A DNA stretch of 64,000 nucleotides from Chitinophagaceae bacterium (GTDB lineage: Bacteria; Bacteroidota; Bacteroidia; Chitinophagales; Chitinophagaceae), in the NCBI GenBank assembly GCA_025360525.1, contig JANYCA010000144.1, forward strand, positions 12,071-76,070. Reading direction: 5' to 3'. How positions within the stretch are numbered: position 1 is the first letter of the stretch; every line of letters starts with the position of its first letter. The notes below the pieces were generated by a model. It was not told the origin of the DNA and did not search any database. It saw only the letters and a list, made by a program, of their open reading frames with translations. The position numbers and the translations under genes were made by a program. This document shows positions 59,787 through 60,313 of this stretch, piece after piece.

Positions 59787-59854
59787 TGAACCGGATTGGA
59801 TTCGAACCAATGACCCTGCCGATTAAAAATCGGGATGCCCTATCCAACTGAGCT
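59787..59854 (-). repeat. tRNA-Arg-derived copy B: D-arm, hairpin in place of the anticodon arm, T-arm and 3' acceptor strand
   Basis: 59786-59817 identical to 60130-60161; AGCTCAGTTGGATAG retained; no 5' acceptor strand. Confidence 0.85.
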
Positions 59855-60091
59855 TATTAAAGTTTCGATATACTTTCTGCTTTTTTGTTTTTTGATGTAC
59901 GTTTCTCTTCTTCTGGCATCTAATAATTCAGTAAATATTTCGGCGTGAACTAATACCCAGGGACAACCTGTCTTTGTAAATTTTTCTTTCCCCCGGTTGT
60001 GATCTTCCAAACGACGAGGCATATCTGTTGTGGAACCAACATAATACTTATTGAGCTTTTCACTAAAAAATATGTAACAGTAGAATGGCAT
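59840..60091 (-). CDS. Small GIY-YIG nuclease family protein (83 aa)
   Basis: FYCYIFFS..KYYVGST..RRLEDHN..KFTK..PWVLV..E..A..RETYIK; likely start ATG 60091. Confidence 0.9.
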   Translation of the reverse strand: MPFYCYIFFSEKLNKYYVGSTTDMPRRLEDHNRGKEKFTKTGCPWVLVHAEIFTELLDARRRETYIKKQKSRKYIETLISSVG

Positions 60092-60130
60092 AACGAAAAA
60101 AAAGCTCCTGATAAAATCAGAAGCTCCAAG

Positions 60131-60204
60131 TGAACCGGATTGGATTCGAACCAATGACCCTCAGCTTAGAAGGCTGATGCTCTATCCAACTGAGCTACCG
60201 GTCC
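60131..60204 (-). tRNA. tRNA-Arg(TCT)
   Basis: GGACCGG/CCGGTTC acceptor, GCTC/GAGC D-stem, TCAGC-CTTCTAA-GCTGA anticodon arm, ATTGG-TTCGAAT-CCAAT T-arm; CCA not encoded. Confidence 0.97.
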
Positions 60205-60224
60205 AATATAATAAACAACTCAAC

Positions 60225-60285
60225 TCGTAACCAATGACTCTCCCGATTAAAATCGGGATGCTCTATCCAACTGAGCTACCGGTCC
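60225..60285 (-). repeat. tRNA-Arg-derived copy A: 5' half, hairpin in place of the anticodon arm, truncated T-arm
   Basis: 60257-60286 identical to 60176-60205; palindrome TCCCGATTAAAATCGGGA at 60241-60258. Confidence 0.85.
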
Positions 60286-60305
60286 ATCATTTTTAAAAAT
60301 GTGTG

Positions 60306-60313
60306 CAAATATA
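60306..60313 (-). promoter_or_regulatory. Bacteroidota -7 promoter box upstream of tRNA copy A
   Basis: Minus strand TATATTTG, 20 nt upstream of the copy A 5' end. Confidence 0.6.

Follow-up and report, generated by a model that had tools for sequence, protein, structure and literature searches.

A GIY-YIG nuclease gene among hairpin-substituted tRNA fragments in a Chitinophagaceae genome: a candidate selfish cassette of bacterial tRNA genes

We analysed a 64-kilobase stretch of DNA from a Chitinophagaceae bacterium (assembly GCA_025360525.1, contig JANYCA010000144.1, positions 12,071 to 76,070), hereafter the window. In it, a gene for a small GIY-YIG nuclease adjoins a tRNA-Arg(TCT) gene, and the pair is bracketed by two partial copies of the tRNA whose anticodon arm is replaced by a hairpin. 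Coordinates are positions in the window, and all parts of the locus are on the minus strand and were read directly from the sequence. In reading order they are a promoter-like box, a 5' partial tRNA (copy A), the intact tRNA-Arg(TCT), an intrinsic terminator, the nuclease open reading frame (ORF) and a 3' partial tRNA (copy B).

Promoters of Bacteroidota carry a -7 box with the consensus TAnnTTTG. The unit opens with a box that matches this consensus, TATATTTG (60306 to 60313), which is the sole promoter candidate upstream of the whole unit; a syntenic relative, locus L177, has cctatatttgcacac at the equivalent place. Copy A (60229 to 60285) corresponds to tRNA positions 1 to about 56. All 27 nucleotides before its hairpin are identical to tRNA positions 1-27. 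Where tRNA-Arg(TCT) has TCAGCCTTCTAAGCTGA, it then has TCCCGATTTTAATCGGGA, the hairpin TCCCGAT-TTTA-ATCGGGA, which a pattern search located at 60241 to 60258. After the hairpin it continues with GAGTCATTGGTT, in which 11 of 12 nucleotides are the same as in the tRNA, and homology stops in the T loop, after GGTT. The 24-nucleotide spacer that follows (60205 to 60228) has no detectable homology to other parts of the locus and is not conserved among relatives.

The intact tRNA-Arg(TCT) (60130 to 60204; Rfam RF00005, 72.1 bits) is the only tRNA that ARAGORN calls in the window. Over the whole genome ARAGORN finds no second tRNA-Arg(TCT). Between the tRNA and the ORF, a terminator scan located an intrinsic terminator at 60093 to 60127, with a 12-pair stem (60127-60101) and a T run. 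It ends 5 nucleotides before the ATG of the ORF, and a terminator directly abutting the ATG is kept across relatives. A sigma-70 scan found no promoter between the tRNA and the ORF.

The ORF (59840 to 60091) encodes 83 amino acids, and its last codons and stop, AGC TCA GTT GGA TAG, are at the same time the D arm of copy B, with the TAG in the D loop. Copy B (59786 to 59854) runs from tRNA position 9 to the 3' end. Its D arm agrees with the tRNA at 18 of 19 positions, its hairpin is TCCCGAT-TTTTA-ATCGGCA (59817 to 59835; TCCCGATTTTTAATCGGCA) with one C.C mismatch, and all 31 nucleotides after the hairpin equal the variable loop, T arm and 3' acceptor strand of the tRNA. Rfam recognises copy B as a partial tRNA (30.3 bits, model positions 9-63). 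No hairpin terminator was called directly after it.

Neither copy passes as a functional cloverleaf, since ARAGORN calls the central gene only. Copy A is missing its T arm and 3' acceptor strand and copy B its 5' acceptor strand, and both have a 7-base-pair stem with a loop of 4-5 nucleotides in place of the 5-base-pair anticodon stem and 7-nucleotide loop. A search of the window finds the hairpin pattern at two places; 100 shuffled versions contain none. Rfam found no group I intron at the locus, and the nuclease gene is intergenic, not within an intron or intein. A preliminary description of this stretch had placed the promoter box, copy A, the tRNA, the nuclease gene and copy B in this order, and each lies where it said. 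It also recognised correctly that TCCCGAT-loop-ATCGG(G/C)A replaces the anticodon arm in both copies and that the nuclease gene ends inside the D arm of copy B. It held further that both copies keep the D arm and the T arm, which is true of the D arm in both and of the T arm in copy B only, the homology of copy A ending in the T loop. Its terminator after copy B was not borne out by the scan, and it had omitted the strong one at 60127-60093.

The 83-residue protein is a GIY-YIG domain alone (Pfam PF01541, E 5e-16). A family profile built from 24 homologues matches BH0048 (PDB 1zg2) at 2.7e-15, EF2693 (PDB 1ywl) at 1.2e-12, the nuclease domains of eukaryotic Slx1 at 9e-8 and I-TevI at only 0.01. 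The AlphaFold model (pLDDT 93.9) ranks 1zg2 first in Foldseek, then Slx1. The catalytic residues Y6, Y17, G19, R27, H31 and E63 are invariant in the 24 homologues, and no invariant Asn follows E63. The protein belongs to the Slx1/UPF0213 branch of the GIY-YIG superfamily, whose defining features it shows. By profile and fold it is of the same family as BH0048, EF2693 and the E. coli YhbQ group, likewise stand-alone domains without the C-terminal Asn (PMC1564403). A survey of the superfamily from 2006 reports neither a tRNA context nor hairpins or arrays for the bacterial group of Slx1-like proteins (PMC1564403).

Within the clade of nucleases found at tRNA-Arg(TCT), the ratio of nonsynonymous to synonymous substitution rates (dN/dS) is 0.04-0.19, with a median of 0.12, and the nuclease is therefore under purifying selection. 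Some copies are pseudogenes with stop codons. We considered and rejected a defence system (no PADLOC match below 1e-3) and a phage origin (two weak Listeria phage matches among 50,697 phage records, and no PHROG family). Elsewhere, a domain of the same type sits within a helicase/restriction-like ORF of about 966 amino acids (L035, G039:C4:345473-345688), as either a domain fusion or an in-frame insertion.

The genome from which the window comes (99% complete, 207 contigs) has four small GIY-YIG genes. One lies in a second cassette, at tRNA-Lys(TTT) (locus L003, contig C40:435-1060, minus strand, from ARAGORN and sequence reading). Its order is copy A, tRNA-Lys(TTT), a terminator, a near-full-length copy B1, another terminator, a GIY-YIG ORF of 81 amino acids and copy B2. 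The Lys anticodon arm is replaced by TCCCGATATTAATCGGGA in all three copies, and ARAGORN labels B1 and B2 'tRNA-??? (atta)'. Another cassette is at the transfer-messenger RNA (tmRNA) gene (locus L006, contig C73:14028-14595, plus strand, by sequence reading). Here the first 11 nucleotides of tmRNA are followed by TCCCGATAGCTATCGGGA, 18 further tmRNA nucleotides, a 95-amino-acid GIY-YIG ORF and the true tmRNA, within which the contig ends. The perfect palindrome TCCCGATAGCTATCGGGA stands in place of 3 nucleotides of the duplicated tmRNA 5' end. A further contig (L002, C179:1-700) has two GIY-YIG-like frames, the second degenerate, each followed by a repeated module, ..atcccgactcaagaac(a/c)ctaccccttcga..terminator, to which no RNA-gene identity could be assigned.

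Homologues occur in 30 of 41 genomes of the same order; the other 11 lack close ones, and copy number per genome ranges from 0 to about 26. From these 41 genomes and 78 named genome records we collected 148 full-length homologous ORFs. The records cover Chitinophagaceae, Saprospiraceae, Cyclobacteriaceae, Hymenobacteraceae, Sphingobacteriaceae, Ignavibacteriota, Calditrichota, Chlorobiota and Kryptoniota. Carriers in culture include Pontibacter sp. MBLB2868, Algoriphagus terrigena DSM 22685, Mucilaginibacter achroorhodeus MJ1a and Sediminibacterium sp. C3. A true tRNA lies upstream on the same strand of 117 of the 148 ORFs, within 120 nucleotides for 82 of them and further along arrays for the others. 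The pattern CCCGA..TCGGG follows the stop codon within 110 nucleotides for 86 of the 148, and in 47 of these 86 it starts at a fixed offset of +5 after the stop. Cassettes are carried by at least 16 anticodon types and by tmRNA. The preliminary description had suggested looking for hairpin-bearing tRNA fragments beside other GIY-YIG genes; these data show that the unit recurs, and the arrangement is not unique to the window.

Relatives also carry the unit in tandem. In genome G017 we found arrays of 3-6 units with periods of 338-388 base pairs. Three units of about 340 base pairs were read at its tRNA-Lys locus; they are nearly identical, with a period of 338 base pairs, and in each the T arm and 3' end come first, then a terminator, the ORF, the D arm and the hairpin. 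Relatives also have arrays made up of A units with no ORF, and those in the Arg(TCT) clade likewise carry A copies. This tandem amplification accords with the earlier suggestion that the element spreads by duplication.

We built a maximum-likelihood tree of 103 cassette nucleases, labelled each with its upstream tRNA and compared it with 200 shuffles of the labels. The label changes 21 times on the tree, compared with 64.8 times for shuffled labels, and every shuffle gave a higher value. The Lys(TTT) rows, 31 in all, make up a single clade with support 98 that spans Chitinophagaceae, Saprospiraceae and Cyclobacteriaceae, and the 15 Arg(TCT) rows are accounted for by one label change. These data show that nuclease lineages keep to one tRNA type across bacterial families. 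The closest relatives of the cassette in the window are all at tRNA-Arg(TCT), with identities of 64-74% for those from genomes and as high as 83% for those from metagenome contigs, and about two thirds of them, counted by eye, have the order A, tRNA, terminator, ORF, B.

The syntenic locus differs among relatives in whether the cassette is present and in how many copies it holds. In the metagenome contigs L177 and L178 the upstream ispH is 80% identical to that of the window at the nucleotide level, and the cassette is 85% identical. They share the same terminator and have three A copies, and the ORF of L177 is 82% identical to the ORF in the window. The last position homologous to L177 is 59786, exactly where copy B itself ends. 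In genome G021 the ispH-tRNA-Arg(TCT) locus has a single tRNA with its own terminator and no cassette. The relatives that show this presence, absence and copy-number variation are distant, at about 73-80% identity, and G021, the sole cassette-free one, is too diverged to give exact boundaries of the empty site.

The acceptor strands bear on how the fragments arose. At L086 the strand of A, GGCTCGG, can pair with that of B, CCGAGTC, and the two differ at compensating positions from those of the enclosed tRNA (GGTCCGG and CCGGATC). A weaker version of this pattern is seen at L183, and L180 shows the opposite. We therefore keep as no more than a sub-hypothesis the proposal that A and B represent the two halves of a tRNA already resident at the site, the intact tRNA having been brought by the cassette: L086 clearly favours it, L183 partly does, L180 speaks against it and 23 of the 26 loci having both copies are uninformative.

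The hairpin itself is conserved. As DNA, the hairpin of copy A folds at -6.5 kcal/mol (z -4.45), compared with -3.8 kcal/mol for the native anticodon arm. Inside TCCCGA/TCGGGA, the seventh pair is Watson-Crick in 107 of 109 distinct instances, against 56 expected from shuffling, and is T-A in 74, A-T in 18, C-G in 13 and G-C in 2. Inner lengths range from 4 to 14 nucleotides, with loops of 2-5 nucleotides after maximal pairing, and the loops are found in both orientations. Because the inner length varies and the seventh pair covaries, it is a folded stem with a fixed base that is conserved, not a duplex operator of fixed spacing. The hairpin type is nearly constant across nuclease clades that share 30-40% identity, which argues for a constraint on the hairpin itself.

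More distant clades have other GC-rich hairpins (TCCCGC..GCGGGA, TCCGCC..GGCGGA, TCCCAACC..GGTTGGGA and CCCCGC..GCGGGG), placed in the D arm or the T loop, at times two per copy. Thus L020, L027 (at tRNA-Pro(GGG)), L043, L047, L150 and L153 have either a D-arm replacement (CCCCGC..GCGGGG, with the anticodon arm intact) or a T-loop hairpin, at times with a second hairpin in the copy. Three other ideas about the hairpin were set aside. Co-diversification of hairpin type with nuclease clade gave a weak signal, with 32 changes against 37.9 for shuffles, and mismatch asymmetry, as a test of an RNA against a DNA hairpin, was uninformative (6 G.T and 6 A.C). Of 15 loops in the Arg(TCT) clade, 7 contain the triplet TCT, as does 1 of 35 Lys loops, and it is absent for Ala, Asp, Met and Pro(TGG); that the loop is a retained anticodon loop was rejected because the stem has 7-8 pairs and a loop of 3-5 nucleotides.

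Hairpins also occur outside cassettes. We counted TCCCGA-N2-12-TCGGGA in the 41 genomes, using the same pattern reversed as the control, and found 665 hairpins against 106. The number per genome correlates with the number of GIY-YIG matches (Spearman 0.65, p 3e-6); for the control the correlation is 0.19 and not significant. Four genomes (G012, G001, G009 and G023) have 48-79 hairpins against 0-5 for the control, far above their number of GIY-YIG genes, and in these the hairpin behaves as a dispersed mini-palindrome; the top genome has 79 against 4. The genome of the window has 8 against 6. Five of the 8, together with the mismatched hairpin of copy B, lie within three cassettes, so the genome-wide dispersal that the preliminary description had looked to is not seen in this organism.

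Individual contexts vary. In the same genome, TCCCGATTTTACATCGGGA sits at the exact tip of a terminator-like stem (ccctggttc / gaaccaggg) after the end of a gene (contig C82:3000-3036), with no GIY-YIG gene near this hairpin (3009), and at L170 the hairpin is likewise at the tip of a longer one. At L168 (G005:C161:1398-1815), a tRNA cluster of Arg, ???, Met and Ile, one full-length tRNA has TCCCGAAAGCTTTCGGGA as its anticodon arm; the 418 nucleotides read there hold no nuclease ORF, and this may be a solo hairpin left behind. Plain intergenic positions are also among the sampled contexts. No consistent target duplication was seen in the approximately 20 contexts inspected by eye.

Outside these subjects, the window has at 56681-58858 on the plus strand a 725-amino-acid ORF with an N-terminal signal-like segment, seen in the translation only, and four tandem motifs of about 29 residues, QP.KVNCWDNFVFN..(T/S)C.W.N(S/T)GTQ.

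How did such a unit come to surround so many tRNA genes? We favour, at roughly even odds, a selfish cassette in which a nuclease of the Slx1/UPF0213 type resides in tRNA genes and is kept and amplified by the recombination that it triggers, with the tRNA fragments as homology arms. This reading is based on the recurrence within one genome, the survey of 148 ORFs, the tandem arrays, the tree by tRNA type, and the invariant catalytic residues together with the low dN/dS. The covariation in the hairpin, the correlation of hairpin and GIY-YIG counts, the syntenic differences, the acceptor strands of L086 and the precedent of the phage enzyme SegB, described below, support it further.

Under this reading, the nuclease would be made by read-through alone, and hence at a low level, with the terminator abutting its ATG and no promoter in between. 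It would make its breaks within tRNA genes or close beside them. Fragment A, the 5' part of the tRNA, and fragment B, the 3' part, would then serve as portable arms for homologous recombination: wherever a cognate tRNA gene is broken, in whichever genome and whatever lies around it, each side of the break would match one of the arms, and repair would copy in the cassette. Arms of this kind would explain the attachment of each nuclease lineage to one tRNA type, even for an enzyme that hardly discriminates between sequences. If repair paired the intact tRNA unequally with A or B, A units and ORF-B units would be gained or lost, which would produce arrays of either sort. The intact tRNA would keep the host viable, and the hairpin would keep the fragments from being functional tRNAs. 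The hairpin probably either resists the nuclease or is the site that the nuclease recognises. Its role may be to block cleavage and decoding of the fragments, to serve as a recognition site or solo mobile unit, or to act as an RNA ligand.

Several observations weigh against a selfish cassette. The intact tRNA retains its native anticodon arm, and a nuclease aimed at that arm would cut the cassette's own host copy. Hairpins in the D arm or T loop, with the anticodon arm intact, mean that a scheme with the anticodon arm as target and the hairpin as immunity cannot be general. An A/B allele unlike the enclosed tRNA is clear at only 1-2 of the 26 loci having both copies, 23 of which are uninformative. 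The protein is 83 amino acids long and lacks the separate DNA-binding domain of homing enzymes. Finally, dS values above 1 with strong purifying selection, and clades that keep to one tRNA type, also fit the long vertical residence of a useful gene.

In yeast and fungal mitochondria, mobile GC-cluster palindromes lie in AT-rich DNA, and free-standing GIY-YIG or LAGLIDADG ORFs are found near tRNA genes. Like the cassette, these combine short GC-rich palindromes with free-standing endonuclease ORFs near tRNA genes; they differ in being organellar, in having other sequences and in lacking the split-tRNA layout.

Among bacterial and phage systems, the one that the cassette would appear to resemble most in its working is the SegB type of free-standing homing endonuclease gene. 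SegB, a homing endonuclease of the GIY-YIG class, is encoded by a free-standing gene in the tRNA cluster of phages T4 and T6 and cuts inside tRNA genes at RAWTSGAAC (PMC13096335). Its nuclease activity and phage recombinases are needed for a ladder-like tandem amplification of the segment that holds the nuclease gene and a tRNA (PMC13096335). By our own reading, the SegB site would be the complement of the T-loop sequence GTTCGAAT. In both systems a free-standing GIY-YIG gene adjoins tRNA genes; in the present case the T loop is where copy A breaks off, and the ORF recurs in arrays together with a tRNA fragment. However, SegB is a phage enzyme of the I-TevI/UvrC lineage whose C-terminal part is needed for toxicity, whereas the present protein is chromosomal, has 83 residues with the catalytic domain only, and is of the Slx1/UPF0213 lineage. 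Nor do SegB loci have hairpin-substituted tRNA fragments. We do not file the cassette as a member of the SegB kind, given that it has no DNA-binding domain and that its target is putative.

The nearest alternative places the mobility in the hairpin. Here TCC..GGA would be the mobile or cis-acting unit, and the nuclease would recognise the folded hairpin and not the tRNA gene; hairpins would be placed in loops of folded DNA, for instance those of anticodon arms, T loops and the tips of terminators, and the tRNA duplications would be by-products. The preliminary description had likewise thought of the REP/RAYT system, to which there are real likenesses: a palindromic hairpin repeat, dispersed at times, and a small nuclease gene flanked by hairpins, with counts that track each other. 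The dispersal in some relatives, up to 79 copies per genome, bears out that part of the comparison. The hairpins exactly at the tips of longer ones (C82 at 3009, and L170) also suit it, as do the full-length tRNA of L168 with a hairpin and no ORF in the 418 nucleotides read, the plain insertion replacing 3 nucleotides in the tmRNA copy, the loops in both orientations, and the variable loop length with a covarying seventh pair, which points to conservation of a folded stem. On the enzyme the comparison fails, RAYT being an HUH Y1 transposase with a covalent intermediate and the present protein a GIY-YIG hydrolase. REPs, moreover, are not embedded in tRNA scaffolds, and the hairpin is not enriched in the genome of the window (8 against 6). 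In the tRNAs the whole arm is replaced, the loop not merely being filled, and the contexts inspected by eye, about 20, show no consistent target duplication. There is no known mechanism by which a nuclease alone would insert an 18-nucleotide hairpin. We regard this alternative as unlikely, though it deserves to be taken seriously.

A further reading, which we hold just as tentatively, is a class of mobile DNA without a transposase. A minimal Slx1-like nuclease of about 80 amino acids, selective for structure, would cut single-stranded loops in folded genes of structured RNAs (D, anticodon and T loops of tRNA genes, tmRNA and terminator tips), the TCC..GGA hairpin would be the cis-acting end and might move or persist alone, and a spare tRNA would make the splitting of an essential tRNA gene harmless.

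A different possibility is that the unit acts at the level of RNA. A and B would be transcribed together with the nuclease mRNA as RNAs resembling tRNA, and their hairpin would bind the nuclease and so control or neutralise it, after the manner of a type III toxin-antitoxin system, or else would serve the stability or processing of the mRNA. The order of promoter, A repeats, tRNA, terminator and nuclease recalls ToxIN, which has a promoter, tandem RNA-coding repeats, a terminator and a nuclease gene in this order. Copy B lies within the ORF transcript, the ORF has no promoter of its own, and a conserved stem with a covarying pair fits an RNA hairpin bound by protein. However, the single stem mismatches show no wobble bias (G.T 6, A.C 6), about one third of the Arg(TCT)-clade loci lack an upstream A copy by eye count, and some hairpins in relatives lie outside cassette units. 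GIY-YIG enzymes are DNases, whereas ToxN is an endoribonuclease unrelated to GIY-YIG. The repeats here are tRNA fragments, and no defence-family model or known toxin-antitoxin family was matched by PADLOC. An RNA module as a whole seems to us rather improbable; that the copies are tRNA-mimic RNAs is neither excluded nor favoured.

We think it still more doubtful that the nuclease is a resident host gene, a housekeeping repair or recombination factor that adjoins tRNA genes by chance, with the partial tRNAs as passive slippage products at highly transcribed, repeat-prone loci. A dN/dS of about 0.1 and clades that are stable per tRNA type would be expected of such a gene, and for prokaryotic Slx1-like proteins both a role in double-strand-break repair and a mainly vertical descent have been predicted (PMC1564403). 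But a housekeeping gene sits badly with 0 to about 26 copies per genome and no close homologues in 11 of 41 relatives, with pseudogenes that contain stop codons and with the empty syntenic locus of G021. Passive slippage sits badly with the same foreign hairpin in every fragment at many unrelated tRNAs and with near-identical units arrayed in tandem. It is barely credible that the arrangement is the scar of a genomic island of the integrase type with the tRNA gene as its attachment site: partial tRNA duplicates flanking an insert are typical of tRNA-targeting islands, but the insert here is about 340 base pairs without an integrase, the duplicates cover positions 1-56 and 9-76 and not the 3' end only, they carry a foreign hairpin, and the units repeat in tandem.

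We found no description in the full-text literature of hairpin-substituted tRNA fragments around Slx1-like genes, as the preliminary description had supposed of this architecture. The cassette would then be a widespread, apparently unpublished variant of selfish nuclease cassettes. If our reading is right, the smallest known nuclease domain, without a DNA-binding module, would maintain a selfish element in essential tRNA genes across several bacterial phyla. It would also account for the 'tRNA-???' and pseudo-tRNA calls beside tRNA genes in annotations of Bacteroidota, and would provide a natural system of nuclease-driven tandem gene amplification, as SegB does in phages. For the large, uncharacterised bacterial Slx1/UPF0213 (YhbQ-like) family, it would be a first biological role.

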